IMG/VR virus record: IMGVR_UViG_3300010353_000347
Coordinates: 52,295-116,294 of that record
Length of the DNA stretch: 64,000 nucleotides
Strand: one strand, 5' to 3'
Source: a virus
In this document: positions 10,140 to 58,132 of the stretch, one piece after another
Layout: each line of letters starts with the position of its first letter
Numbering within the stretch: the first letter of the stretch is position 1
Program-made: the position numbers and the translations under genes
The notes under the pieces: model-generated
Database searches by the model: none
What the model saw: the letters and a program-made list of their open reading frames with translations, nothing else
Told to the model about the DNA's origin: nothing

Positions 10140-10217
10140 TGGTGTTCCCTAGAGGACTCAAACCTCTACATCCGCCTCCGAAGGCGGCGGTACCCTATTC
10201 TGTTAGGTGAAGGGAAC
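10140..10217 (-). tRNA. Atypical tRNA-Arg(TCG)-like with enlarged anticodon arm
   Basis: Acceptor GTTCCCT/AGGGAAC, A73, CCA; CCGCC/GGCGG stem encloses GCCTTCGGA (9 nt); T-loop TTTGAGT. Confidence 0.6.
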
Positions 10218-10218
10218 A

Positions 10219-10293
10219 TGGAGCGGATGACCGGACTCGAACCGGCACCTCAAGGCTTGGAAGGCCCGTATGCGACCATAACACCCCATCCGC
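10219..10293 (-). tRNA. trnG: tRNA-Gly(TCC)
   Basis: Cloverleaf folded by hand, loop CTTCCAA, encoded CCA. Confidence 0.9.
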
Positions 10294-10296
10294 GTA

Positions 10297-10371
10297 TGGA
10301 GCCGAGTAGTGGAGTTAAACCACTCTGATACCGCTTTGCAGGCGGTTCCCTCATCGCTCAGGCAACTCGGC
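10297..10371 (-). tRNA. trnC: tRNA-Cys(GCA)
   Basis: Loop CTGCAAA, U73, CCA; T-loop TTTAACT. Confidence 0.9.
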
Positions 10372-10373
10372 AA

Positions 10374-10449
10374 TGGTGATCCCACTAGGACTTGAACCTA
10401 GACCTCCGGTTTCGTAGACCGGGGCTCTTTCCCGTTAAGCTATGGGATC
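10374..10449 (-). tRNA. trnR: tRNA-Arg(ACG)
   Basis: Loop CTACGAA, CCA. Confidence 0.92.
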
Positions 10450-10450
10450 G

Positions 10451-10526
10451 TGGTGTACCTGGGAGGATTTGAACCCCCACAGCCGGGGTAGAAGCCCGGT
10501 GCCCTCTCCGGTTAGGCGACAGGTAC
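10451..10526 (-). tRNA. trnR: tRNA-Arg(TCT)
   Basis: Loop CTTCTAC, CCA. Confidence 0.92.
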
Positions 10527-10527
10527 G

Positions 10528-10603
10528 TGGTGTCCCCACGAGGACTTGAACCTCGACCCTCGGTTTAGGAAACCGAAGCTCTATCCCGTTAAGCTATGAG
10601 GAC
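10528..10603 (-). tRNA. trnR: tRNA-Arg(CCT)
   Basis: Loop TTCCTAA, CCA. Confidence 0.92.
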
Positions 10604-10678
10604 AAACCCCCTCGCTGCCTCTCGTGGTGTCCGGTTCACTCGCTTTGGATCGGTTCGGCAGCGAGGGGTACTTTAGAG

Positions 10679-10755
10679 TGGTGGGGATGGAAGGAATCGA
10701 ACCTTCAACCTCAGCCTTATCAGAGCCGCACTCTAACCAATTGAGCTACATCCCC
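10679..10755 (-). tRNA. trnI: tRNA-Ile(GAT)
   Basis: Loop CTGATAA, CCA. Confidence 0.93.
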
Positions 10756-10831
10756 TGGTGGTCAGGGAGGGACTTGAACCCCCGACGCGGGGCTCTTCAG
10801 GCCCCCGCTCTACCGACTGAGCTACCCGACC
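10756..10831 (-). tRNA. trnF: tRNA-Phe(GAA)
   Basis: Loop CTGAAGA, CCA. Confidence 0.93.
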
Positions 10832-10837
10832 TCTAAC

Positions 10838-10860
10838 TGGCGGTAGGTAAAGGAATCGAA
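10838..10860 (-). pseudogene. 3-prime fragment of a tRNA (Ser/Asn-like, G73), truncated at the T-loop
   Basis: Minus strand TTCGATTCCTTTACCTACCGCCA resembles 3-prime ends of Ser(GGA), Ser(CGA) and Asn in this array; no matching 5-prime part upstream. Confidence 0.65.
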
Positions 10861-10917
10861 AACTGCCTTTTACCGCTACACCCACGAAATCTGTTCCTGT
10901 ATCTGGCAGGAGGCGCC

Positions 10918-11661
10918 ATGAAACCGCTTTACACGAAAGAACAGTTTGAGTCTGCTAAGAGCCGAGACTTACTCCCCCTAGAATGTTACTATTGCGGGAA
11001 CCCATTTCTCAGGGGGAAGAACGACTTACTGACGATGGAGCGTGCCAAAGGTTTTTGTGGAACGTGGGCTCGGGCTGGTAAGTATTGCAGCCAGTCTTGT
11101 AACTCTAAGGCTAGCCACCTCCTCCGTGGTAACCGCCTTAAGGTTAGTACCGTGTGTAGTCTCTGCGGAGAAAAATTAGAGCGGTGCTGGTCACAGTACG
11201 CCCGGTCGAAGAATCACTTTTGTTCTCGCTCCTGCTCTGTAACCTACCGGAACACTCACAAGACGGTGGGAGTCCGAAGATCCAAGCTGGAAGTTTGGTT
11301 AGAGGAGCAACTGACTCTTCTTTACCCTGACCTGGAAATCCACTTCAACAGGAAAGACGCTATCAACTCTGAGCTTGACATTTACTTTCCGACTTTAAAA
11401 CTCGCTTTTGAGTTGAATGGCCCTCTTCATTTTGAGGCTGTTTATGGTCCCGAAAAGTTAGCACAGATTCAGAACAATGACGACAGGAAGTTCCAAGCCT
11501 GTGCTGAGAGAGGCATCTCCCTTTGCCTGATTGACGTTTCCGCAATGAAGCATTTCAAACCCGCTCGTGGAGAGTGGGTACTGTCTGAAATCAAAAGCAA
11601 GGTGGAGGTTTGGTGCCGAAGGCCGGACTCGAACCGGCACGCCAGAGGCACAAGTTCCTAA
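10918..11661 (+). CDS. Free-standing homing endonuclease-like protein (Zn-finger repeats + Vsr/DUF559-like PD-(D/E)xK domain)
   Basis: CYYCG, YCSQSC, CSLCG, FCSRSC; ELDIYFPTLKLAFELNGPLH; AGGAGG SD; antisense to tRNAs, AT-richer than flanks, 3-prime end overlaps tRNA-Leu. Confidence 0.75.
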   Translation: MKPLYTKEQFESAKSRDLLPLECYYCGNPFLRGKNDLLTMERAKGFCGTWARAGKYCSQSCNSKASHLLRGNRLKVSTVCSLCGEKLERCWSQYARSKNHFCSRSCSVTYRNTHKTVGVRRSKLEVWLEEQLTLLYPDLEIHFNRKDAINSELDIYFPTLKLAFELNGPLHFEAVYGPEKLAQIQNNDDRKFQACAERGISLCLIDVSAMKHFKPARGEWVLSEIKSKVEVWCRRPDSNRHARGTSS

Positions 11662-11693
11662 GACTTGCGTGTCTGCCATTTCACCACTTCGGC
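11611..11693 (-). tRNA. trnL: tRNA-Leu(TAG)
   Basis: Loop CTTAGGA, long variable arm, CCA. Confidence 0.92.
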
Positions 11694-11707
11694 ATTTCGG
11701 ATTCGTT

Positions 11708-11786
11708 TGGTCGGGCGGGAGGGAGTCGAACCCTACAGCAGACAGCCGCTTATAAGACGGCCCGAGTCAACCGGACTTGCCACCCA
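11708..11786 (-). tRNA. trnI: Atypical tRNA-Ile(TAT)
   Basis: GCCGT-CTTATAA-GCGGC anticodon arm, TTCGACT T-loop, CCA; 5-nt D-loop, U1.G72. Confidence 0.7.
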
Positions 11787-11887
11787 AAACCTGTGCGTTC
11801 CCTTTATTCTTCGTCCGGTGAGTATGGACCCCTGACCTCCCCCAAGTACGGTTCACAGAATCAGGCGTGTGCTTACCGGGGCATCGT

Positions 11888-11977
11888 TGGCGGATAGATA
11901 GGGAATCGAACCCTAAAGGGCTTTTACACCTCGCTCGGCTTCCAACCGAGTGCCGTCACCTATCGGCTTGCCTATCC
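11888..11977 (-). tRNA. trnS: tRNA-Ser(GGA)
   Basis: Loop TTGGAAG, long variable arm, G73, CCA. Confidence 0.92.
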
Positions 11978-11980
11978 TTT

Positions 11981-12069
11981 TGGTGGGGTGCCCTGGAGTT
12001 GAACCAGGGGGGTGGTTTTGCCACGACGGGGTTACAGCCCGCTCCCGCCCCCTACGAGTCTAACACCCC
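11981..12069 (-). tRNA. trnY: tRNA-Tyr(GTA)
   Basis: Loop CTGTAAC, long variable arm, CCA. Confidence 0.9.
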
Positions 12070-12159
12070 TAAGTGACCGGCATAGGGTGGGGAAGCCGGT
12101 CTTTCCTACATCATCCCACCATTAGCCCCACGGTTAAGGTGAGGGGGCGGCACCTACTC

Positions 12160-12345
12160 CTCAGTTCTCTAGTCAGCCCACAGTACGCTCTTCAAACCGC
12201 ATCACGGGTCTCACCCCGCCGGTTTCAGGGATTTCCGGTACTGTGGTAGGTGTGAGACGGAACCTCACAGTTTTAGCTAGGGGGCCTGTTGCAACAGGCG
12301 TTCCCATGAGTACCCACCGGCTGTGGGCTGACTGGAAAACTGAGA
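12160..12345. ncRNA. Candidate ~185-nt structured RNA
   Basis: 24-bp closing inverted repeat (2 mismatches) enclosing several hairpins; between tRNA-Pro and tRNA-Tyr. Confidence 0.5.
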
Positions 12346-12346
12346 A

Positions 12347-12424
12347 TGGTCGGGGCAGAGGGATTTGAACCCCCGGCCTCACGCTCCCAAAGCGTGCGCT
12401 CTAGCCAAGCTGAGCTATGCCCCG
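12347..12424 (-). tRNA. trnP: tRNA-Pro(TGG)
   Basis: Loop TTTGGGA, C1-G72, CCA. Confidence 0.93.
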
Positions 12425-12932
12425 AAACTGCGGGAACTCCGGCAGCGGCCTTGCACCGCTGTAGTGGCCTTAACCTGTAGAGGTAGGACTACTCGCGTCT
12501 AATCCAAGCCCGAAGTTATCCCCCGAATCCCCCTACCTGTTAGAGTGCGGGTGTCTCGTGTCTGCCCAAGCCCGAAGCGCACCCTACGAGCCGAAGCTCG
12601 CCTCCCTCAGTCCTTAGTTACGGTCTCCCAAACCGGGTTCCCTAGCCGGGGCTTAGTGGGGCTAACCGGCGCACCATGTCGGGATTCAACGGGTTTATTG
12701 GGTATTCACCCGTTCCTTATTCACCCCACCTACGTCCGTATCGTCTTTAGAGTCGCACGGAGGAACGCGACATTCCTACTGTACCCACTCGTCGGGCTGG
12801 TCGGTACTCCCGGTACACCCGTCCAACCTCTGCTCCACACCCTTCTGCCTGGAGCGTGACAGGCCCGTATAAAACCCCCTACGGAGCCGAGGGTCAACCT
12901 CTGTTAGCTAGTTGTCAAAGACCGTTTCAACA
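12425..12932 (-). ncRNA. Candidate ~500-nt multi-helix non-coding RNA
   Basis: No credible ORF; many hairpins incl. CGAGC-TTCG-GCTCG; own sigma70-type promoter immediately upstream, tRNA-Pro immediately downstream. Confidence 0.6.
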
Positions 12933-12938
12933 GTAGGG

Positions 12939-12967
12939 AGTGTAGCAAGTAACTTTTCCTTTGTCAA
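12939..12967 (-). promoter_or_regulatory. sigma70-type promoter
   Basis: TTGACA-N17-TACACT. Confidence 0.75.
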
Positions 12968-12971
12968 CCCC

Positions 12972-13169
12972 CTACTCGGTACGAGTGATCGTGAAAATCG
13001 GAGATGCCCCACCCCCGAAAACCTCCGACTCCCCAACTCGGAGAGAGGAAACGGCGTCGAGAAGATCGTCGTCTCCCTCGTTGTCACGGGCGAACTCCTC
13101 CCATGTCGTCTCCCAGGTTTCTGACAGGAGGTCGGCACCTTCCATGCGGATGCTGTATTTCGTGTTCAT
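12972..13169 (-). CDS. Hypothetical protein
   Basis: 65 aa acidic ORF with AGGAG SD, last gene of promoter cassette. Confidence 0.65.
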   Translation of the reverse strand: MNTKYSIRMEGADLLSETWETTWEEFARDNEGDDDLLDAVSSLRVGESEVFGGGASPIFTITRTE

Positions 13170-13178
13170 TTCCTTCTC

Positions 13179-13607
13179 CTATGCGAAGTCGTAGTACCCG
13201 TCGAGGTACAGTCCACCCTCCCAGGTTGGGTAGTCACGAACCTTGTCAAGCCAATACGCGAACCCATCCCGGTGGTACCTGTCCTCCTCCATCGTAGCGG
13301 GGCGTCGAAGCATATCCAGCAGCCCAAGGTAGTCCTGGTAGGACGGGAGAGGGAACCTTCCGGGGGTGTCCGCAGACCCCGCTCGCCGGGTGGTTTCCGT
13401 AGCCTTGTGGCGAAGCCTGTCAGCACAGGCCGCACCATGCCAGAACGCTGCCAGAGTCGTGGGAAGTCCGACTTTCCCGTCCTCCCTCACCGTAGCGAAC
13501 TCACCACAGACGTTGGCGAAGTCTTTCCAGAACCCGAGAACGTCGGGAGTGGGCCGGGTCAGGTCAATGGAAATCGTAGCGTCGGACAGGGGAATCGTGG
13601 TGTTCAT
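13179..13607 (-). CDS. Hypothetical protein
   Basis: 142 aa, AGGAGG SD, overlaps upstream stop. Confidence 0.7.
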   Translation of the reverse strand: MNTTIPLSDATISIDLTRPTPDVLGFWKDFANVCGEFATVREDGKVGLPTTLAAFWHGAACADRLRHKATETTRRAGSADTPGRFPLPSYQDYLGLLDMLRRPATMEEDRYHRDGFAYWLDKVRDYPTWEGGLYLDGYYDFA

Positions 13608-14083
13608 GCAGCCTCCTGACAGTGGAAAGCGGAGCGGGTTCCGATCCGGTACTGACGGCCCGCTTCGTTCACGACCAGCAGCGAGCGGCGAATTCTTCCG
13701 ACCACGGTGTAGGGCTTCCCGTAGACCAGAACCTTGCTGCCCACACGGATGTCCTTCTTGCCCTCGTTACGAGCGTGGTGTGCCCGAACCTTGGCTCGCC
13801 ACTCGGGGTTCGTCTCCGGGGCCATGTCGAGGAAGGACAGGGGGCAAGTGAAGTAGTACGGCCCCGAGCTTTCCGGCATCCCCATGTAGCCCGTCATCCC
13901 ACGGCGGGTGGCGATCCTGTAGAGGACGATCATGTTCTGACCGCTGGGGGTCTCGACCACGATCCAGAGGTCGCTGCCCACCAGCTTGTGAGTGATCGGC
14001 TTGTACCCTGCCACGAACCGAGCGGGGTCCAGAAGATTCCGCACCGTCTCCGCCTTGCTCTCGTATCCGAAGTCCCATCCCAT
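13604..14083 (-). CDS. Conserved mobile-element hypothetical protein (DUF6927-like)
   Basis: MGW...GYMGMPESSGPYYFTCPLSFLDMAPETNPEWRAKVR pattern; first gene after promoter cassette. Confidence 0.65.
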   Translation of the reverse strand: MGWDFGYESKAETVRNLLDPARFVAGYKPITHKLVGSDLWIVVETPSGQNMIVLYRIATRRGMTGYMGMPESSGPYYFTCPLSFLDMAPETNPEWRAKVRAHHARNEGKKDIRVGSKVLVYGKPYTVVGRIRRSLLVVNEAGRQYRIGTRSAFHCQEAA

Positions 14084-14140
14084 TGTCCGTCCCTCCCTTC
14101 GATTGCAAATGTAGCATAACCGTTAGGTGGTGTCAACAGG
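14084..14140 (-). promoter_or_regulatory. Early-type promoter-RBS cassette copy 1
   Basis: TTGACA-N17(...GGTTATGC)-TACATT then GAAGGGAGGG. Confidence 0.8.
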
Positions 14141-14144
14141 AAAA

Positions 14145-14232
14145 TGGCGGATAGGGAGGGAATCGAACCCCCAAGGCCGTTAAGCTCCTCCGCTTTCGAG
14201 GCGGGCTTCGTCGCCAGTCGATTTGCCTATCC
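14145..14232 (-). tRNA. trnS: tRNA-Ser(CGA)
   Basis: Loop CTCGAAA, long variable arm, G73, CCA. Confidence 0.9.
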
Positions 14233-14241
14233 GTAGAGGCT

Positions 14242-14583
14242 TCAGTCCTCAGCGGTGGGCAGACCACGGTTGACTCTCTCCGCCAAGTCGTAGATTTCCC
14301 TGCCCGCCTGTTGGAGGGTGTCTGCGATGTCGAGGAGAACGTCTGCCGTGTTCTTCATGTCGAGAACGCTCCTACCGTCGGGCTCGTGGTAGTAGTCCCC
14401 CAAGTAGATTCGGTCACCCGCGATGATAAGCTGCACGGTTACGTCGATGGACTTGACCTTTCCATCGGGGTAGTCCACCTCTGTCACTTTGGCGAACACG
14501 CTATCCAGGTCGCCCCCCTGCCCGTCAACGGGACGGAGGAACCTTCGTTGAATCAGGTGGTCAATCTTCCTCTCTTCGCCCAT
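14242..14583 (-). CDS. Hypothetical protein between tRNAs
   Basis: 113 aa with AGGAGAGG SD. Confidence 0.65.
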   Translation of the reverse strand: MGEERKIDHLIQRRFLRPVDGQGGDLDSVFAKVTEVDYPDGKVKSIDVTVQLIIAGDRIYLGDYYHEPDGRSVLDMKNTADVLLDIADTLQQAGREIYDLAERVNRGLPTAED

Positions 14584-14603
14584 TGCCCTCTCCTGAGTTG
14601 GGT

Positions 14604-14681
14604 TGGTTGGGGTGGGAGGGCTCGAACCTCCACATGCTAGGGTCAGAGCCTAGTGCCTTTGTCCGATTTGGCGACACCCCA
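14604..14681 (-). tRNA. trnQ: tRNA-Gln(CTG)
   Basis: Loop CTCTGAC, U1-A72, CCA. Confidence 0.9.
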
Positions 14682-14703
14682 ATACGTTCGTTGCTTCTCG
14701 GAT

Positions 14704-14993
14704 GTTTCTAAGTGTGCCCGTCCACCAGCATTGTCCCCGACGGGATGGCGGCACCCGTTCGGGGGGAAGGTTTAGGCTCGCAAATGGCAGTCTGGTTCCT
14801 CCCCCGTGTACGACCCGCCAACGTAGGCCACCCGTGCCACCAGACAAACGAGTGCGCGAATTGGTTTGGTACACGCGACAGGGCCGCGTTCTGTTGCCTT
14901 GCGATTGGACGGAACCCTGGTAGCTAGTCAGGAGTTACACCGCTACGGCAGAAAGAGCGCCGTAACCTTGCCCGGACGGGCACGCTTAGAAAC
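14704..14993. ncRNA. Candidate ~290-nt structured RNA
   Basis: 20-bp closing inverted repeat with 1 mismatch; internal hairpins; no credible ORF. Confidence 0.55.
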
Positions 14994-15062
14994 ACAGAGC
15001 TTTGGAAGTAACCCCCCGGTTTGAGGTGCTTGGGAGCATAGCCTTGGGGGGTTTTGTCTGAT

Positions 15063-15135
15063 TGGTTGCGGGTAGGGGAGTTGAACCCCTCCGCAAAGGC
15101 TTATGAGACCTTGCTGGCCACCGGGCCTACCCGCG
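15063..15135 (-). tRNA. trnM: tRNA-Met(CAT), initiator-like
   Basis: Loop CTCATAA, C1.A72 mismatch, short D-loop, CCA. Confidence 0.85.
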
Positions 15136-15138
15136 TCA

Positions 15139-15215
15139 TGGTACCCCTACGGGGTGCTGCCCCCCGTTCTGCGGTTAGAGAGACCGCGATCCTAGCTAGC
15201 GTAGACGATAGGGGC
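15139..15215 (-). tRNA. trnE: tRNA-Glu(CTC)
   Basis: Loop CTCTCTA, atypical T-loop GGCAGCA, CCA. Confidence 0.8.
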
Positions 15216-15216
15216 T

Positions 15217-15292
15217 TGGTAGCGCAGACAGGACTTGAACCTGCTAGGTCTAGCTTGAAAGGCTAGGTACGCGACCCTTTGTATTCTGCGCC
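15217..15292 (-). tRNA. trnE: tRNA-Glu(TTC)
   Basis: Loop CTTTCAA, CCA. Confidence 0.88.
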
Positions 15293-15293
15293 G

Positions 15294-15367
15294 TGGTGGA
15301 CAAGGGGGGAATCGAACCCCCACCCGTACCTTGCAAGGGTACTGTTCTCCCTTTAAACTACTCGCCC
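15294..15367 (-). tRNA. trnA: tRNA-Ala(TGC)
   Basis: Loop CTTGCAA, CCA. Confidence 0.88.
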
Positions 15368-15369
15368 GT

Positions 15370-15440
15370 TGGCGGGCCTCCAAGGACTCGAACCTTGCGG
15401 TCAGGGTTTTGGAGACCCCGACGCTCCCTGAGCGAGACCC
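15370..15440 (-). tRNA. trnW: tRNA-Trp(CCA)
   Basis: Loop CTCCAAA, shortened D-arm, G73, CCA. Confidence 0.85.
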
Positions 15441-15446
15441 AAAGAT

Positions 15447-15521
15447 TGGCGGATAGGGGAGGATTCAAACCTCCGACAGTCCGGTTAACAGCCGGATGCT
15501 CTATCCCTGAGCTACCTACCC
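15447..15521 (-). tRNA. trnN: tRNA-Asn(GTT)
   Basis: Loop CTGTTAA, G73, CCA. Confidence 0.92.
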
Positions 15522-15530
15522 GAAGATTGA

Positions 15531-15607
15531 TGGTGCCCGCGAGTGGATTCGAACCACCACTTTTCTCGTTTTGAGGGAGATACCTCTGCCATTTGGGCTA
15601 CGCGGGC
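15531..15607 (-). tRNA. trnL: tRNA-Leu(CAA) with short variable loop
   Basis: Loop CTCAAAA, Leu-type D-arm, 5-nt variable region, CCA. Confidence 0.85.
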
Positions 15608-15800
15608 ATTCGTTTCCTTTGGTTAAATCTTCCTGCACAGGAGCGGCCACAGAACGGTCCAGCCTTACCCATGTTCACTTGATTATGCTTGACATGACTA
15701 CACAACTTTGATACTACCACCCCACACTCCGGGCAGGTCCGTCTATGTCAATGCAGAACAGGTAACCTTGTCTTGATTCGTAGGGTCCGTATCGTTTCAT
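15600..15800 (-). pseudogene. Internally deleted HNH homing endonuclease remnant
   Basis: MKRYGPYESRQGYLFCIDIDG joined out of frame to TCPECG...GKAGPFCGRSCAGRFN; these resemble N- and C-terminal ends of phage HNH proteins, no HNH core present. Confidence 0.55.
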
Positions 15801-16193
15801 GTCTACCACTTCCAGCCATGCGGGCGGAGGAAAAATGAGGTAGGGGGCGGATCAACCCGCTGCTCTCTCCCTTACGAGGAGGAGTGAGCGGTATGGCTAG
15901 TACCTCTCTGGAGGATTGTAGGGGGGCCAACCCCATTTTACCTCCCAGCTTCCCGAGCCTCACTTGGCGGTGGGAGTTCCCGCCTTGGCCAGAAACCGCC
16001 GGTCTCCACTTTGCCGACAGTCCAGTACGGGGTTTCGCGCAGATGCCCTACTTTGGCGACTGGCCGCTCTATTTTTTTCTCCCCTCTCTGATTGCCCCGC
16101 TTTCCGGGAGGGTGAGAGTCCTGACCGCTAGCTGTCAGGGCCGGTTATACATCGTACCAGGAACACGCGCATCGCTGCCTCCTGTCTTGTAGA

Positions 16194-16269
16194 TGGTGGG
16201 ATGCCAGGGATTTGAACCCTGATTGCTCAGCTTAAGAGGCTGGGGTCTTTGCCGTTAGACGAACATCCC
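16194..16269 (-). tRNA. trnK: tRNA-Lys(CTT)
   Basis: Loop CTCTTAA, CCA. Confidence 0.9.
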
Positions 16270-16275
16270 TCAGAT

Positions 16276-16352
16276 TGGAGCCCCCAGCCGGAATCGAACC
16301 AGCAACCTTGTCCTTACGAGGGACTTGCTCTTCCAAATTGAGCTATGGGGGC
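16276..16352 (-). tRNA. trnT: tRNA-Thr(CGT)
   Basis: Loop CTCGTAA, CCA. Confidence 0.92.
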
Positions 16353-16354
16353 AT

Positions 16355-16429
16355 TGGGGCGACCCGAGGGGGATGATCCCTCGCCTCTTCCTTCACAAAG
16401 AAGAATGCTACCGTTACACCAGGGACGCC
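16355..16429 (-). tRNA. trnH: tRNA-His(GTG)
   Basis: Loop TTGTGAA, G-1:C73, atypical T-loop ATCATCC, CCA. Confidence 0.8.
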
Positions 16430-16444
16430 GAAAAATCTTTCTTG

Positions 16445-16520
16445 TGGTGGGGAGAGAGGGACTTGAACCCCCGACCCGTTGCTTGTAAGGCAACCGCTCT
16501 CACCGCTGAGCTACCTCCCC
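16445..16520 (-). tRNA. trnV: tRNA-Val(TAC)
   Basis: Loop CTTACAA, CCA. Confidence 0.93.
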
Positions 16521-16534
16521 TTTCGTTGAAAATC

Positions 16535-16739
16535 TTGACCTCTTTTCCCAACACAGAGTTGCGAGATTCGCGCCCGCATTCAGGCCCAGCCGTCGCTGAG
16601 GGTGTGCGGATCTTCGGATTTAGTTCGCTTGCGGTCAGCGTAGCTGTTGGTTCCCCCGTCGGGGACAGCTACCTGGATCGGCAGCGCATCTCTTTCTCGC
16701 TCTCCATGTACGGCCCTCTGTGCTGGGAAAAGAAGTCAA
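16535..16739 (-). ncRNA. Candidate ~205-nt structured RNA
   Basis: ~24-bp closing inverted repeat, inner GCGAGA/TCTCGC helix, GTAGCTGT/ACAGCTAC hairpin; between tRNA-Asp and tRNA-Val. Confidence 0.5.
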
Positions 16740-16741
16740 AA

Positions 16742-16818
16742 TGGCGGGGCAGACGGGACTCGAACCCGCTTTCTCCTGATAGACAGTCAGGCGTCTCGGC
16801 CTCTTCGACTTCAACCCC
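16742..16818 (-). tRNA. trnD: tRNA-Asp(GTC)
   Basis: Loop CTGTCTA, G73, CCA. Confidence 0.88.
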
Positions 16819-47950: not shown

Positions 47951-47975
47951 CGTCCGCTGCAACGAGTGGTTAGGT
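47921..47975. other. attC site 1 (permuted, extrahelical base on right arm)
   Basis: CCTAAC...TTCAGCGG...CCGCTGCAA...GTTAGGT. Confidence 0.85.
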
Positions 47976-47998
47976 CTCATAAAACTGAAGGAGGAAGC

Positions 47999-48970
47999 AT
48001 GAAAAGAAAGACGCAGACATTGTTCAATCAGAATCACACGGTCGCCGATGTGTTCAACCAATCGGAATCTATTGTCGTGTACCCCGGCGATTGCCTCGAC
48101 CTCTTAAAATCAATACCGGATGAGACACTCCAACTTGTTGTCACTTCACCCCCTTACAACATCGGCAAAGAATACGAGAAGAAACTTCATCTCGATGTGT
48201 ACTTACAACAGCAAGCCCAGGTCATCGCCGAGTGTGTCCGTGCCTTGTCCCCCAAGGGCAGCATTTGTTGGCAGGTCGGCAACTACGTTGACAGGGGAGC
48301 CATCATACCTTTGGACACCGTGTTATATCCCATTTTCGCAGACTTTGGTCTTCGGATGCGGAATCGCATCATCTGGCACTTTGAGCATGGACTACACTGT
48401 AGCCGCCGATTTTCTGGCCGCTACGAAACAATAATCTGGTTCACAAAGTCGGATGAGTACGTCTTCAATCTCGACCCAGTGCGCATCCCACAGAAATACC
48501 CCGGGAAAAAGTATTTCAAAGGCCCGAAAGCCGGCCAGTATTCGTGCAACCCACTTGGCAAGAATCCCGGAGACCTGTGGGTAATTCCGAACGTAAAAAG
48601 CAATCATGTCGAAAAGACCGAACACCCGTGTCAGTTCCCCGTTGAGCTGATTGAGCGATTGGTGCTTTCCCTCACCAATGAAGGGGATTGGGTGCTAGAT
48701 CCTTTCCTTGGAACGGGCACGTCGATTATCGCCGCTATCCGTCATGGACGCCGGGGTGTTGGGGCCGAGACTGTAGCGAAGTATGTAGAGCTTGCACGAC
48801 AGAGAATCCAGCAGGAAATGGACGGCACATTGCGAACCCGGCCTATGGCCAGGCCAGTTTATGACCCTGTGGAAGCCGGAAACAGCCTTACAATAGCTCC
48901 TTGGGATAAGAAGGAATCCAAGCAAATGAGGTTACTTGAAAAAAGAGCAAAGTATGGAAAGGAACACTGA
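47999..48970 (+). CDS. Type II DNA methyltransferase (beta class, probably N4-C)
   Basis: TSPPYN motif IV, HPCQFPVELIERLV, VLDPFLGTGT motif I; GGAGG SD. Confidence 0.92.
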   Translation: MKRKTQTLFNQNHTVADVFNQSESIVVYPGDCLDLLKSIPDETLQLVVTSPPYNIGKEYEKKLHLDVYLQQQAQVIAECVRALSPKGSICWQVGNYVDRGAIIPLDTVLYPIFADFGLRMRNRIIWHFEHGLHCSRRFSGRYETIIWFTKSDEYVFNLDPVRIPQKYPGKKYFKGPKAGQYSCNPLGKNPGDLWVIPNVKSNHVEKTEHPCQFPVELIERLVLSLTNEGDWVLDPFLGTGTSIIAAIRHGRRGVGAETVAKYVELARQRIQQEMDGTLRTRPMARPVYDPVEAGNSLTIAPWDKKESKQMRLLEKRAKYGKEH

Positions 48971-49581
48971 TGAATATCTCTGAGACATATTCCCATTTGA
49001 ACGGGCTTGAATTCCTTTTAGTTCACAAGCCAAACCTTTGGAAAGAAATACAAGCTGTCATTGCTGCGGTGGATGCCAATAAATGTCGAACGAAAGTATC
49101 CAAAGAAAAAACGATGAAGGGCAAGCTTCTATTTAGTCCCATCGACATGAATTCTGAATTCAATCGTCTGCTTCGGGAACAATCTTGGGACGAAAGCCGA
49201 GTGAGCTATTGGGTTACCAAAAGCGAAAAGTTGATTCGGAAAACGCTTACGATGCCTGCGGAAGAGCAAAAACGGGAGATTGAGGCAGCTGGCGAAACAC
49301 CTATTTTTAGCTATAACCAGACTGATTTTGTCAAAGATCGGGTGGCCGTTGAGGTTCAGTTTGGAAAGTATGCTTTTGTCGCATATGACCTTTTCGTCAA
49401 ACATCTCGCGTTCTATGTTGGTGATCGAATAGACGTAGGAATTGAAATTCTTCCAATGAAATCCCTTCAAAGCCAGATGAGTTCCGGTGTCGCTTACTAT
49501 GAGGGCGAGTTCTATAACGTAGTTCGTCAAGGGCGCGGTGTGCCAGCAGTCCCACTCGTGCTTATTGGTATTGAACCTTGA
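48970..49581 (+). CDS. Type II restriction endonuclease, BglII/BstYI family
   Basis: NQTDFVKDRVAVEVQFGKYAFVAYDLFVKH...IDVGIEILP...MSSGVAYYEGE (D...E-x-Q active site). Confidence 0.88.
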   Translation: MNISETYSHLNGLEFLLVHKPNLWKEIQAVIAAVDANKCRTKVSKEKTMKGKLLFSPIDMNSEFNRLLREQSWDESRVSYWVTKSEKLIRKTLTMPAEEQKREIEAAGETPIFSYNQTDFVKDRVAVEVQFGKYAFVAYDLFVKHLAFYVGDRIDVGIEILPMKSLQSQMSSGVAYYEGEFYNVVRQGRGVPAVPLVLIGIEP

Positions 49582-51812: not shown

Positions 51813-52316
51813 TTAGCCCTGGAAGAAGTAGCGGTCGAATACGAGGGCTAGGGTAAGCTGCACTACGCCGGACTGCGAGTAGGACAGGTTAGAGGCTGTC
51901 AGGTTAGACGGCCACACACCCTCTAGCTTGTACGTCCTGGGTGAGGTTCCGTCGGGTGCCAGTAGGCGGAGGAACGCTTGCTTCTTGTAGTCCCTTGCCC
52001 AACCGATTGCTCCTGTCTCTGCGTTGTACACGAGCTTGCGCCACGACTCTAACGCCTGTGCGATACCCTCGTCTACGAAGTCCTTGACCACGAGAGAACC
52101 ACCCTGAGCGGATGCCCTACCAGCGACCTTCCGATCCTCGCCCATGTAAGCAATGTTGATCGTGTTGTTCTGCATGGACGGGACGAACATCTGCTCGACT
52201 GCGAGACGGACGTTCTCTGCATTCGGAACGCCGACGAGGACTACCTCAAAGTCAAACGCTCTCTGAGGCTCGAACCCTCCCCCTTGTGGGGCAAGATGCT
52301 GTGCTGTGATTGCCAT
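51813..52316 (-). CDS. Tail tube protein (gp19-like)
   Basis: FEPQRAFDFEV...YMGEDRKVAGRA...WRKLVYNAETG...YKKQAFLRLLAPDG...LEGVWPS..NLSYS. Confidence 0.9.
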   Translation of the reverse strand: MAITAQHLAPQGGGFEPQRAFDFEVVLVGVPNAENVRLAVEQMFVPSMQNNTINIAYMGEDRKVAGRASAQGGSLVVKDFVDEGIAQALESWRKLVYNAETGAIGWARDYKKQAFLRLLAPDGTSPRTYKLEGVWPSNLTASNLSYSQSGVVQLTLALVFDRYFFQG

Positions 52317-52382: not shown

Positions 52383-53351
52383 TTACCGCGAGCGTCGTGA
52401 CTCGTCGTAAATAACCCTAGCTGCCTTTAGTCTGCTCCCGGACAAAAGGTCGAGTGTCCCATCTTCACGCCGCATATAGTACGTCTGGTCCGTACCGCCG
52501 AAGTCAACGAAGTTTTCTACTTTGCCCCTGACCGTTACACCCCTGGCATCCTCGTACTCCCACCACGGACCTGACTCTTTCAGGCTACGGGCCTTGGGGC
52601 GCTTGGACTCCACCCGGCGCATGGGAGTTTTCGCTGAGTCCGGTAAGAAGTACCCCGTCTCGATCTTTGCCTCCATCTGCGCGATGGCATCCTCGTCGGA
52701 CGGCAGTTGGCCAAGAAACCCTCCAGCATCGGGGCTTGTGTACCCGTACCCGTAGTCATCCCGGTACAGAACTACCCAATGCTTGCCTGTCTTAGACTCC
52801 CACTTCGCCACTACCCTGCCATTCTCCAGACTCTCGTACATGCCTTCCCGTAGCTTGCGCTTGGGCTTACGAGACTTGGATTCCATACGGAGTGCCCTGT
52901 GCGCCACCTCGTCGGCAAAAGCGTGCAGCCAAGGGGACTCAGACGGGTAGACCTTTAGTGCATCTTCCACGGTGTACAGGAGGCTATCCGGGTCGTGGAT
53001 TTTCAACGCCTCGTAGGCAGCAGTGGACGGTTCGTAGTTCGTGTTTATGAAAGCCCCAAGGTAATCCACCATCGTAGCCTCTGGGCCAATATGCACGGGA
53101 ACCCGAGACCCCTGCACTAGCTCTTCTCTCAGCATCTTCTTGCCCTTGGGCTTGGCGGACTCGTCAACGGGGGGCCAGTAGTAGATCGGAACACCCTCTG
53201 CGGTCCAACCCGTTAGGTACCTCTTCGCACCGCACTTGTTACAGATGAAGATAGTGGGGTTGTAAGTACGTTGAAAGATAACCCGGTCAAAGTGTTCCGG
53301 TGCCCCACGGAACCTTCGTACCCAAGTCAGTAAAGTCGGCGGGTAAGCCAC
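52383..53351 (-). CDS. Modular polyprotein (probably fused to 53287..53466 by +1 frameshift)
   Basis: Linkers ESAKPKGKKMLREE, ESKSRKPKRKLREG, ESKRPKARSLKES; ends DESRRSR. Confidence 0.7.
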   Translation of the reverse strand: MAYPPTLLTWVRRFRGAPEHFDRVIFQRTYNPTIFICNKCGAKRYLTGWTAEGVPIYYWPPVDESAKPKGKKMLREELVQGSRVPVHIGPEATMVDYLGAFINTNYEPSTAAYEALKIHDPDSLLYTVEDALKVYPSESPWLHAFADEVAHRALRMESKSRKPKRKLREGMYESLENGRVVAKWESKTGKHWVVLYRDDYGYGYTSPDAGGFLGQLPSDEDAIAQMEAKIETGYFLPDSAKTPMRRVESKRPKARSLKESGPWWEYEDARGVTVRGKVENFVDFGGTDQTYYMRREDGTLDLLSGSRLKAARVIYDESRRSR

Positions 53352-53466
53352 AGTTTGGGCATTCCTTCGTGTACTCGTAGTCCCAGCCCACTTCCTCTAA
53401 CAACGTCCCTCGCTGATTCTGCACAGCGGAAACGAAATCTTCTCGTAGCTTACCTAGTGGTCTCAT
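53287..53466 (-). CDS. 59-aa leader ORF ending at CTT-TGA-C
   Basis: ATGA-coupled to upstream stop; MRPLGKLRED...ECPNCG...WGTGTL*. Confidence 0.65.
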   Translation of the reverse strand: MRPLGKLREDFVSAVQNQRGTLLEEVGWDYEYTKECPNCGLPADFTDLGTKVPWGTGTL

Positions 53467-53681
53467 CGCTCGCTCCCCGACACTTGCCTCACAAGGGCAA
53501 GAATGTTTTCTGCATCCTGCCCGACGATTCCAACGGATTCAGCCCAACGGCGAAAGTCCTCTTCGTGATCCTCTGGATTCTCGAACCAAAGGATGTCGAA
53601 GTCGGGGAAGGCCGTCTTAAACGTGCTAGCCTTCCCCCCTACTCCGACGCTCGAAATGGAGGTATCCTCTCTGAGAGCCAT
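53463..53681 (-). CDS. Hypothetical protein
   Basis: MALREDTS..., SD supplied by upstream AAGAGGAAG. Confidence 0.6.
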   Translation of the reverse strand: MALREDTSISSVGVGGKASTFKTAFPDFDILWFENPEDHEEDFRRWAESVGIVGQDAENILALVRQVSGSER

Positions 53682-53682
53682 G

Positions 53683-55107
53683 TTACTTCCTCTTCCTCTT
53701 CTTGGACTCCGAGAGAGACAGTAGCATATCCGCAATCTCGTCCCAAGTTCCTGAGAACCCAGGTAGGTTGCCACCGTAGGAAGTGTTGTCAACGGGGAAG
53801 TCCTCTATCCACAACCTATCGTCCCCGTCATAGTCCCCAAGCGTCCAAACATTGTAGGTTGCCCCTCGCCAACTCACTCGTGCGTAAGGGCCTTGGTACT
53901 TATCAAACCCGTGGACAGATAGGAATTGGAACTCAGGAACTTCCGCAGAGATACCAAGCACAGCCGCTTGCAGGGCATCCATCCAGGCACGATCTTCCTC
54001 GTCACCCGACCACTCTCCCGTTTCTTTCAGGCTGCGCTTAGACTTTTTGGACTCCAAGTAGTCATCGTAGGGGGAATGCTCTGTGCCGGGAGGCGGATGT
54101 ACCCAGTTCCTCTCACCGTACTCGTCTGTGCCCATGTAGACACCACAGTTTGTGCTGCTGCCACGGTCTCGCCAAACGTCTCCATCCTCATCGTACTCTA
54201 TGTCCTGCCCGCACAGCGCACAAACCTCATGCTGCCCGTCAAAAGGCTCAGACTCGTACTCGTACTCTTTCAGATTGCGCTTAGACTTTTTGGACTCCAA
54301 TTGGATGCAAGCCGTGTTCTTCCCCGTCTTATAGCGTGCCCCAGTTACGTCGTCTGTGTACCAGCCGCCGTTGCTCTGTTTGGTAAATGTTACGGAGTCG
54401 GTTTCCCTAAACTTAAACCTACCCCCAACCGGGATATAGTCGAAGATGGTGGATTGTCCGCTACCCGTTACCAAGTCCGCCCACGCAGAAGCCTCCATGC
54501 CCGACTCCGTAACCGCCCGCAACCCTCTACGCTTTGGCTTTTTGGCCTCGTTGAACCTGTTAGAAGAGATACCCTGCTGCATGGAGTTGTAGAGTTCTCC
54601 TGTCAGCACCCTGCCGAAAAACCCGTTGAACATCTCCTCTGCTAGGCTCTCGTCCCCCCCAAGGGATACAGAGAAGAAGCCGCACCAGTACGCACCGGCA
54701 TCTCTCGGCATTGGGACAAACATAGCCTCGTCTTTGTACGGAAGAACCCCAGCGGTTATCTGTACCTGGAGGCAAAAGTCCTCCCAGTAGGCTAGATCCC
54801 AAACCCCGTAGTCTCTGAGGTGCCGCCCAAAGTCGTAGACTGACTCGGGAACAATGTCCGAGGGCTCTTCCCGCAACCTTCTACGCTGAGACGGCTTGCG
54901 CCGATTGGACTCGTCATTCTCGGAAAGGACTTTCCGCTGTGACGGGGATACGAACTCCCGTGCCACCGGCTTTGATGGCTCGTACATGACGCCCAAACGA
55001 CCACGGATGGGGTAACCCTCGACTCGCCCACTACTGTCCGTTTTCCCTTTCGAGATGGCGGCAGTCGTAGCGAAGAATGAATCTCTTACGTTCTCTCTCG
55101 GGGACAT
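53683..55107 (-). CDS. Modular polyprotein
   Basis: Linkers ESNRRKPSQRRRLREE, EAKKPKRRGLRAVTES, ESKKSKRNLKEY, ESKKSKRSLKET; ends ESKKRKRK. Confidence 0.75.
   Translation of the reverse strand: MSPRENVRDSFFATTAAISKGKTDSSGRVEGYPIRGRLGVMYEPSKPVAREFVSPSQRKVLSENDESNRRKPSQRRRLREEPSDIVPESVYDFGRHLRDYGVWDLAYWEDFCLQVQITAGVLPYKDEAMFVPMPRDAGAYWCGFFSVSLGGDESLAEEMFNGFFGRVLTGELYNSMQQGISSNRFNEAKKPKRRGLRAVTESGMEASAWADLVTGSGQSTIFDYIPVGGRFKFRETDSVTFTKQSNGGWYTDDVTGARYKTGKNTACIQLESKKSKRNLKEYEYESEPFDGQHEVCALCGQDIEYDEDGDVWRDRGSSTNCGVYMGTDEYGERNWVHPPPGTEHSPYDDYLESKKSKRSLKETGEWSGDEEDRAWMDALQAAVLGISAEVPEFQFLSVHGFDKYQGPYARVSWRGATYNVWTLGDYDGDDRLWIEDFPVDNTSYGGNLPGFSGTWDEIADMLLSLSESKKRKRK
54024..54300. repeat. 34-bp direct repeats (32/34 identical) flanking one protein module
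   Basis: ctttcagNNtgcgcttagactttttggactccaa at 54024-54057 and 54267-54300. Confidence 0.9.
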
Positions 55108-55109
55108 AG

Positions 55110-55691
55110 TCACTTCCTCTTCCGGGACTCGTCAAAGTCCTCTTCGTCGCCGTACATATCCGCTAGGTCGGCCTGAGCCTCTTCCGCTGAGTCGTAGATC
55201 GCCCAAGGTATGGAGTCAAGGTAACCTGGGGCCTGATACCTACCAATCCAGCCTGTCACCTCTCGGAACGATAGGGGGTCACCCTCGCAGTAGTCACGAA
55301 GCTGCTGAATGTCGGTGACAGCCCCTACTACGTCCACAGGGATGATCTCTGTACCGTGAGTGGTGTCCACTTCGTAGGCTGTGCCGTAGTAAATCTCAGG
55401 CTCCATGAAGCCTTCCTTAACGACACGCTTCCGGGAACGCTTGGATTCCTCGATCACGTTTTCAACAGGAACCCCACCGATAACACGGCCAATGTTGGTT
55501 TCTACGCTCACACGAGTTCCCGAATCGTTAATGTAGAACAGGGTTCCGATAAACACTTCGCCCGTATCAGGGTGCGAAATAGTTATAGTGTCCCCCAGGG
55601 CTACTTCGGAACCGCTGGGTAGCGTAGCCTTGTAGAGACCATCCTCGCTATCCCACTCCCTCAGCTTCGCACGGCGAAAGGGTGGCGCTTC
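55110..55691 (-). CDS. Modular protein lacking its own start (open in -1 frame of upstream gene)
   Basis: Frame open from 55691: ...FRRAKLREWDSEDGLYKATLPSG...HPDTGEVFIG; first GTG (55556) has no clear SD. Confidence 0.6.
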   Translation of the reverse strand, partial: EAPPFRRAKLREWDSEDGLYKATLPSGSEVALGDTITISHPDTGEVFIGTLFYINDSGTRVSVETNIGRVIGGVPVENVIEESKRSRKRVVKEGFMEPEIYYGTAYEVDTTHGTEIIPVDVVGAVTDIQQLRDYCEGDPLSFREVTGWIGRYQAPGYLDSIPWAIYDSAEEAQADLADMYGDEEDFDESRKRK

Positions 55692-58132
55692 TCACCCTCC
55701 CGTACTCTCTTGGACTCTCCGAAGAGGCCACCCTTGCGCTTTAGATCCTCGTGGGGAACGACAAGAGACTGACCGTTGCCGAAGGCTACGGCGTACAGGT
55801 AACCGTCACCGTGGGGGAACTGCTGGACGATCTTTCCGTCACCATAAGCACCCTCAGAGCCGAAGTAGGTTACGTCCTCTCCAATCTGATACTGCGGATC
55901 GGCTGTATCCTTCGCGTCTACCTTTTCCTTAACGGCGAAAGGGCGACGGCGGCGGGCCTCCTTAGCCTCGCCTGACTTGTCTCGGAGGTCTTTCTTCTCG
56001 TCCTCTTCCTCCTCGATTTCCTCGTCGTCCTCTTCCTCTAGCTCGTCCTCTTCGTCGTCCTGCTCACGGATCTTGCGGGACTTCCGGCGGAGAGCTTCCA
56101 TGCGACGGCGGAGGCGACGACGGGACTCTTCCTTCTTGTCCTTGTCCTCTTCGTCGTCATCTTCCTCCTCGATTTCCTCGTCGTCCTCTTCCTCTAGCTC
56201 TTCGTCATCTTCGTCGTCCTCTTCACGAAGTTTTCGAGCCTTGGCACGGAGACGGGACTCTTCCTTCTTGTCCTCACCCTCTTCGTCGTCCTCTTCCTCT
56301 AGCTCGTCATCTTCGTCGTCATCCTGCTCGCGGATCTTACGTGCTAGCCTACGACGGCGGGACTCTTCCTTGTCCTTCTTCTTTAGGAAGTCGGGCTTGT
56401 CGTCACCCTTATCCTCGTCGTCCTCTTCCTCTAGCTCTTCGTCACCCTCTTCGTCCTCTTCCTTCAGGAACTTGTCGAGAACGGACTTGGCTTGCTTGCG
56501 GTACTTCTCAGCAAACGAGAGGTTGCCACCGTCGGTAGGAGCGGACTTCGCCTTCTTCTCGGCGTCACCCGGCTCATCGCCAGCTACGGTCGGGTCAGGA
56601 GTCGTGAAAGCGGTGTCCTCTGCCTCACCCTCTTCACCCTTGGACTTGGTTCCTGTGGTCGGGAAGGAAGCATCCGCCGAGGCAGGAATAACCTCCTCTT
56701 CCCGCAGACTGTTTAGGTAGGCGGCGACTGCGGCTTGCGCGTTCTTGCCCCGTGCTACCTGCTCGATTAGGTCTCTAACTGTCAGCTTCATAGCGGTTGC
56801 TCCTCTTTTAGTGCTAAAGGACTTTCCTGAATTTGTTGACTCCCGTACATAACCACTAGTACAGAAGTTAAGTGACTCCCTATCGGAACCGAACAGAATC
56901 AACCCAAGACGTTTTATCTCACCGATTACAACGTCCGCGATACGCATACGGGAAGCGTTATCGGTGTAACTGCCTTCCGGTGGAAGTACCGAAAGTACCA
57001 AATCCCCATCCCACATCCTGATTTTAACCTCTATGTTTGGGTCAATCGAAGCGAGCGTGTGACGGACTTCGGCGGCTATGGAATCTAAGAAGGAGTCGGA
57101 TGATTCCTCTCTGTACACTCGGGTTGACTCCATTTTTGAAAGTGCCTTCTCTTGGCACCTTGAACAGCGATTCGTGATGCCGTCTGCGTACTCAGTTACC
57201 TGCATGAATCGGTTACAGCCCTCACAACGGCGATGGTTTCCTTCGGTGACGGATTCGTACCCCATCCAAGCACTCCGGTTCTCAAAGTCCCGATCCAAGT
57301 TTGTGTCGGGATCATACTCCTCACCACGCTCGTAGGGCGGAGGAGTATCTTCTTTACAGGAGAAGCACACCGGGCCGTATTCATAGGTGTTCGGGATTTC
57401 CCCTGTGAGAACGTAGAACTTCTGCCCTGCGGCTTCCCAAGGTGTACCACAAGAGATGCAAGCAACGTCTGGGTCTACGGGAGTGAACCCGGAGTATTCT
57501 CTCGCCTCTAGGGTGGACCCCCCTAGCTCTGACCAACCAGAATTGGAAGCCAGACTTTCGGAAACCCTCTTGGATTCAGCAAGATCAACGTCGTAGCTGC
57601 CGCACTTGGGGCACTTGGGGCTCATGCTCCCCGACTTGAAAACCTTACCACACTCCTGACACTTGACTTTCATGGATGCGCTCTCTTCCACACTAACCGA
57701 GGTTTCCTGTGCTACTGGCCACGGCACAATGATCTCCTCTTCGGCAAACGTCCCCTTACCTAAAGCCTCGCTGTAGGAGAGGATTTCGGAAACCGGGATG
57801 CGAAGCTGCCACAACCCGCCCCTGCTCGCTCGCCGTGCAACCCCACGATCTAAAGTGAGACTCACAGTATTCGTGAACCCCTCACTCCCTGTTAGGCCAC
57901 GGTAAGCTGTTACCTCTTCCCCGTACACCCGCCGTAGAAGCTCTTGTGACCGCCTAGCTACCTCTTGTCTCACCGCTTGGACATCCTCCACCCTGACAGT
58001 ATCCAAGTCAAGAGCGGTGGCAATCGCGTCAAGCGGATCGTCCTCGTAGAGGGCATGAACTAGGTCAGACGCGACCCCGGAATCCAGAATCATGCTTAGG
58101 ATTTCGGAGGATCGGGTGCCTGTGACGATCAT
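55661..58132 (-). CDS. Polyprotein: ART-like (R-S-E) domain + Zn fingers + acidic scaffold/core-like region
   Basis: TAYRG...VSLT...AEEEIIV; CQEC/CPKC, CISC/CFSC, CEGC/CSRC; internal ATG 56791 with AGAGGAG SD (MKLTVRDLIEQ) then EEDDEE/ESRRRR repeats. Confidence 0.7.
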   Translation of the reverse strand: MIVTGTRSSEILSMILDSGVASDLVHALYEDDPLDAIATALDLDTVRVEDVQAVRQEVARRSQELLRRVYGEEVTAYRGLTGSEGFTNTVSLTLDRGVARRASRGGLWQLRIPVSEILSYSEALGKGTFAEEEIIVPWPVAQETSVSVEESASMKVKCQECGKVFKSGSMSPKCPKCGSYDVDLAESKRVSESLASNSGWSELGGSTLEAREYSGFTPVDPDVACISCGTPWEAAGQKFYVLTGEIPNTYEYGPVCFSCKEDTPPPYERGEEYDPDTNLDRDFENRSAWMGYESVTEGNHRRCEGCNRFMQVTEYADGITNRCSRCQEKALSKMESTRVYREESSDSFLDSIAAEVRHTLASIDPNIEVKIRMWDGDLVLSVLPPEGSYTDNASRMRIADVVIGEIKRLGLILFGSDRESLNFCTSGYVRESTNSGKSFSTKRGATAMKLTVRDLIEQVARGKNAQAAVAAYLNSLREEEVIPASADASFPTTGTKSKGEEGEAEDTAFTTPDPTVAGDEPGDAEKKAKSAPTDGGNLSFAEKYRKQAKSVLDKFLKEEDEEGDEELEEEDDEDKGDDKPDFLKKKDKEESRRRRLARKIREQDDDEDDELEEEDDEEGEDKKEESRLRAKARKLREEDDEDDEELEEEDDEEIEEEDDDEEDKDKKEESRRRLRRRMEALRRKSRKIREQDDEEDELEEEDDEEIEEEEDEKKDLRDKSGEAKEARRRRPFAVKEKVDAKDTADPQYQIGEDVTYFGSEGAYGDGKIVQQFPHGDGYLYAVAFGNGQSLVVPHEDLKRKGGLFGESKRVREGEKRHPFAVRS
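55977..56470 (-). repeat. Coding low-complexity tandem repeats (acidic blocks alternating with basic linkers)
   Basis: Repeated ELEEEDDEE and ESRRRR...KIREQDD units. Confidence 0.85.

Follow-up and report, generated by a model that had tools for sequence, protein, structure and literature searches.

The cargo gene is split between two reading frames

Does the CTT-TGA-C heptamer that closes a 59-codon open reading frame (ORF) in this phage genome mark a programmed +1 frameshift of the prfB type, or is it a by-product of the mutation that split the gene? We addressed this question in a 64,000-nt stretch (the window) of the virus record IMGVR_UViG_3300010353_000347. The record spans 132,356 bp with a terminal repeat, corresponding to a unit of 131,697 bp with 56% GC and 23 tRNAs. 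Tail sheath, gp19 tube and baseplate hub genes, together with a gp21-like prohead protease (PF03420, E 1.7e-20) and a gp23 capsid gene (PF07068, E 1.3e-67), identify the source as a T4-like myovirus. Its tail sheath shares 40-46% identity with the best cultured-phage matches, and the relatives whose records state a habitat come from anaerobic digesters. The tRNA genes form a cluster on the minus strand (G000:C1:62513-69112, window about 10200-16800) that lacks a suppressor anticodon. Elsewhere in the window, a methyltransferase and a BglII-family nuclease (47966-49581) are absent from the genes called at that position in L009 and L012, relatives that have the same tail-tube gene, a pattern consistent with a recent insertion of the pair.

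The features of the locus are listed in Table 1. As the earlier note had described, the 59-codon ORF is joined to the upstream stop and ends ACC GGA ACA CTT TGA C, and the +1 frame brings CNKC to CPNC before leading into a polyprotein of about 300 aa. Our count gives 301 open codons beyond the TGA. The start of the leader is preceded by a Shine-Dalgarno (SD) sequence with a pairing energy of -7.3 kcal/mol, and by analogy with T4 the leader may serve as a capsid-targeting propeptide. The ATGA overlap with the 72-aa upstream gene (window 53462-53470) recurs in L023; in the other relatives this small protein has 70 aa and 3 nt separate its stop from the ATG, the junction differing by 1 nt.

Table 1 Features of the split cargo gene and its surroundings (window coordinates).
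Feature	Position	Strand	Comment
T4 gp19-like tail tube gene	51813..52316	-	Protein identical in relatives; anchors locus orthology
72-aa upstream gene	53463..53681	-	TGA overlaps the cargo-gene ATG (ATGA)
59-codon frame-0 ORF, ATG 53466 to TGA	53287..53466	-	Truncated product with the first CxxC only
CTT TGA C, prfB-like heptamer	53286..53292	-	Falls within His-Phe-Asp codons of the +1 frame; lacks the SD expected 3 nt upstream
+1 open frame	52383..53396	-	Rest of module 1 and three cargo modules; ends at TAA 52383
24-codon leader	53395..53466	-	Contains KLRE, ends LLE; kept in relatives
Module 1, C4 zinc-ribbon-like (putative)	53163..53394	-	Split by the frame change; homologous module intact in relatives, missing from one allele
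CPNC	53361-53350	-	Frame 0
CNKC	53243-53232	-	+1 frame
ES-basic-L[RK]E linkers separating modules	53162-53124, 52883-52845, 52610-52575	-	+1 frame
Possible internal starts	GTG 53351, ATG 53135, ATG 53072	-	+1 frame
Module 2 with its linkers	52845..53133	-	Shares 84% DNA identity with the third module of a 669-aa allele that has a continuous frame there
Most likely net +1 indel interval (inferred)	53300..53337	-	Includes the short runs TTT 53334-53332 (favoured most by homology) and GGGG 53306-53303

Module 1, the module split by the frame change, resembles a C4 zinc ribbon and is putatively assigned as such. Its four cysteines are conserved between the window and the homologous module of a relative, for which a predicted model shows four strands at a pLDDT of only 56, with a poorly ordered loop between the two knuckles. 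Fold searches returned weak zinc-ribbon matches, none at E<=0.001, and Pfam matches below the cut-off. For the cargo gene as a whole, no Pfam or PHROG match above threshold was found and none of the known polyvalent domains was detected; an ESM Atlas query with the homolog retrieved only unnamed viral clusters (0.89).

The gene is continuous in relatives

We gathered 15 distinct contigs from relatives in which the leader is present and the flanking DNA is 94-98% identical. Each of the 15 carries the orthologous gene without interruption: where complete, it encodes 418, 429 or 669 aa, and elsewhere it stays open as far as the contig reaches. An in-frame CTT-TGA is present in none of them, in a comparison where the zinc module of the relatives has diverged (about 34% identity to that of the window) or is absent. 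The homologous module is intact in 14 of the 15 and missing from L023. In a protein search, the peptide joined from both halves matches P0003, a 429-aa protein whose gene occupies the same position, immediately upstream of the identical tail-tube protein, and in which a single frame holds the same leader and the homologous module, with its four cysteines and, downstream, the YL-GWTA-GV stretch. Because relatives have an unbroken frame from the leader through both CxxC pairs to the later modules, these comparisons support the reading that the two ORFs are halves of one former gene, a point on which the earlier note was right.

DNA similarity to the relatives stops at the last Glu codon of the leader (53394), a residue missing in the L023 allele, and returns close to the end of the gene or at linkers. 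Searches of IMG/VR, JGI metagenomes, GTDB genomes, GenBank phages and protein collections did not find an intact copy of the exact module variant of the window. L023, with 69 open codons, was considered as an unbroken copy and rejected, as it is another allele without the zinc module. That absence indicates that module 1 is dispensable and, together with the recurrence of module 2 in the 669-aa allele, the alignments argue that the cargo modules are swappable and dispensable.

Turnover of this kind is visible among near-identical strains with an identical tail-tube protein. Across window 52383-55113, L004, L008, L009, L014 and L023 differ in their modules, which have been gained, lost, duplicated or swapped as whole units, with the ES-basic-L[RK]E linkers as the exact boundaries. 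A 243-bp module between repeats at 54024-54300 is missing from L023, L008 has one module duplicated, and L014 has a deletion between two linkers.

The frame change probably lies upstream of the heptamer

The two frames overlap for about 20 codons, from the first CxxC to the stop, and every possible crossover within this overlap was scored against the intact homolog. The best crossover fell at codon 45 (window about 53332, in the TTT run; score 97), and the CTT-TGA junction scored 66, the lowest value after the first CxxC. Codon 45 ranked first in all five scoring schemes, whereas the junction ranked 19th-21st of 21. The associated p values were 0.007-0.02 in four schemes and 0.15 in one against off-frame peptides of the genome, and 0.03 against shuffles, in a test that draws on one homolog family at about 34% identity, on a low-confidence loop and largely on one match, that of the +1-frame triplet PEH just before the motif to PDH in the homolog. 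Crossovers as late as codon 55 retain a gain of 15-24 points, for the most part through this PEH/PDH match. With BLASTP, both CxxC pairs were aligned only when the crossover was early (43.9 vs 35.8 bits). Models of codon usage and Markov models, for which this genome served as training set, have their maximum at codons 50-53 and score codon 59 within 1-3 bits of it, too close to tell these positions apart.

Taken together, moderate evidence places the frame break at about 53337-53300, probably 4-14 codons upstream of the stop and not at the motif. If the break does lie upstream, the heptamer consists of old His-Phe-Asp codons read one base early.

A spontaneous indel is the most likely explanation of the split

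We consider the best explanation to be an indel that arose spontaneously in a dispensable module of the cargo polyprotein, a T4-like chain predicted to be cleaved by the prohead protease, and put its probability at about 0.72, a value that, like our grading of the alternatives, reflects judgement and not computation. The locus would be an accessory late gene encoding a short leader and, after it, a series of small exchangeable modules with ES-(K/R)n-L[RK]E linkers between them. By analogy with T4 (PMC5694885), the leader would direct the chain to the prohead, where the gp21-like protease would cleave after Glu in the linkers and free the modules for ejection. A net +1 indel in module 1, most likely within the interval given in Table 1, would have changed the frame; the ribosome would then read 4-14 wrong codons before meeting a TGA made of the last T of the Phe codon and the GA of the Asp codon, so that the CTT-TGA-C motif would be a by-product of the indel. 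The main product would be the truncated 59-aa peptide, and modules 2-4 would arise at most through a low leak, or through initiation within the +1 frame at codons such as ATG 53135, which would leave out the leader. Because the modules appear dispensable, the phage would tolerate the loss of those downstream.

The sequence context of the motif was analyzed across the genome. CTT-TGA-C occurs 23 times in the 131.7-kb genome, 17 of them on the coding strand, and upstream of most of the latter the +1 frame stays open over a long stretch, as Phe-Asp codons in ordinary genes would produce. When net +1 indels were simulated in the genes of this phage, the first stop appeared a median of 17 codons downstream and was TGA in 61% of cases, TGAC in 28%, CTT-TGA in 2.9% and CTT-TGA-C in 0.6%. 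The exact heptamer is thus an uncommon outcome of an indel, yet well within reach of a genome scan. Bacteria show high conservation of the prfB SD, which lies 3 nt upstream and has a consensus close to AGGGGG (PMC12421855). This element is absent here: as the earlier note had seen, only GGA occupies that position, and ACCGGA pairs at -3.5 kcal/mol vs -10.2 for an E. coli-type element, a strength equalled by 31% of random 12-mers. No stimulatory RNA structure was found downstream of the heptamer (z 0.19), and no promoter or same-strand terminator near the site. Readthrough of the TGA was also considered and rejected: frame 0 closes after 16 more codons, TGA is a normal stop in this phage, and none of the 23 tRNAs is a suppressor.

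Alternative readings

The indel could be an ordinary one whose effect is softened by chance, with +1 slippage of a few percent at CUU-UGA-C reconnecting the leader to modules 2-4. Such slippage would be compensatory and not an evolved sensor; the loop of module 1 would be scrambled, and the leak would help the allele to persist. Slippage on CUU-U with a weak UGA-C terminator is mechanistically sufficient in some hosts, where prfB sites without an SD shift as well as the native site of F. johnsoniae, about 7% (PMC10798248). Frameshifting that compensates for indels is an established category (PMC5009743), and the loop that would be scrambled is the poorly ordered one of the homolog model. In E. 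coli, however, SD substitutions nearly abolish the prfB shift (PMC10798248). This phage uses SD-led starts, and its host is therefore probably not SD-blind. The allele is, moreover, known as a single strain, 100% identical wherever found, and thus gives no sign of persistence. We regard such an accidental rescue as unlikely.

The earlier note had gone further and proposed a prfB-type shift through which cargo synthesis could respond to RF2 availability. On a programmed reading, an SD-less prfB-type site would have evolved in this module variant so that full-length ejected head cargo is made only when RF2 is limiting. If that were true, the phage would set its load of injected protein by the release-factor level of the host. 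The main argument for such a site is the 0.6% frequency of the heptamer after a random indel, to which the exact motif in the correct +1 phase, a stop inside a domain, the long open frame that follows, a compatible codon model and the existence of SD-less prfB sites that still shift (PMC10798248) can be added. The motif is nevertheless unconserved in relatives, and their continuous frame without it, though in a diverged or missing module, is what the earlier note itself had named as counting against its proposal. The SD is missing, and homology puts the frame change upstream, leaving the motif near last as a crossover. The module is also dispensable and has no evident link to termination. On this evidence the proposal is unsupported, and we consider a programmed site quite improbable.

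An assembly or sequencing error in a gene that is really continuous would agree with its continuity in all relatives, but is very unlikely: across 7,651 bp that include the break, a Logan contig assembled separately from the short reads of SRR5168926 matches the window at 100% identity, and 59-aa and 250-aa products are both recorded from Logan and ENA assemblies, records that may share one source with the window, and the interval holds no long homopolymer. Equally doubtful is a pair of independent functional genes, a 59-aa peptide and a protein of 322 aa (from GTG 53351) or 250 aa (from ATG 53135): gene callers chose 322, 250 or 229 aa for the downstream part, and weak SD-like pairing precedes the GTG (-5.7 kcal/mol, about 11 nt upstream) and the ATG (-4.2 kcal/mol), but the GTG lies inside the first CxxC, each product would hold half a zinc site, the downstream protein would miss the conserved leader, and relatives encode a single chain.

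A second break at the scaffold-like gene

Another frame break follows the scaffold-like gene (window 55661-55700, minus strand), where C CCT TTC precedes a TGA and the -1 frame runs on, without a start, into a KLRE linker and two modules. This break is common to four relative contigs (L004:569, L005:569, L007:347 and L008:640), which across 186 codons differ by 2-3 synonymous changes and 1-4 replacements. Judged by its conservation, unlike the CTT-TGA-C site, it is the better recoding candidate. Frame 0 reads PFAV, a repeat of a linker that occurs earlier in this protein, and an inherited deletion after it would fit as well.

On the present reading, the split cargo gene is an ordinary broken accessory gene and a programmed regulatory switch is not supported. 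Since the first stop after a +1 indel is TGA in most simulated cases and is often followed by C, a phage proteome rich in Asp and Glu will generate prfB look-alikes spontaneously, and a conservation test is needed before one is interpreted. Head-cargo polyproteins that swap modules at linker repeats among near-identical strains appear to us more interesting than the frameshift.

Comparison with known systems

The site shares with prfB (AGGGGG-N3-CUU-UGA-C; PMC12421855, PMC10798248) the heptamer, the +1 phase and an early UGA-C not far into the gene. It differs in having ACCGGA in place of the SD 3 nt upstream, in being unconserved among relatives, in lying in a gene unrelated to termination, and in a frame change that homology sets upstream of the motif. 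Compensatory frameshifting of indels (PMC5009743) offers a partial parallel, in that leaky slippage, hypothetical here, could partly offset the effect of the indel. With phage polyvalent proteins (Iyer et al, 2017, PMC5512222), the gene has in common a multidomain, variable product that is likely packaged in the virion, with proposed processing into units. The differences are that the known polyvalent domains were undetected and no embedded MPTase was seen in the cargo protein, for which processing by the prohead protease is inferred instead.

There is also a likeness to the T4 internal head proteins and Alt, in which a capsid-targeting sequence is removed by gp21 cleavage after Glu (PMC5694885). 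Here too, a short N-terminal leader ends in hydrophobic-X-E, the gene stands in a late-gene position, and a gp21-like protease and gp23 are encoded in the same genome; packaging and cleavage of the cargo protein are predicted. The cargo gene departs from the T4 arrangement in carrying several modules in one ORF, separated by repeated ES-basic-L[RK]E linkers at which modules are swapped between strains.
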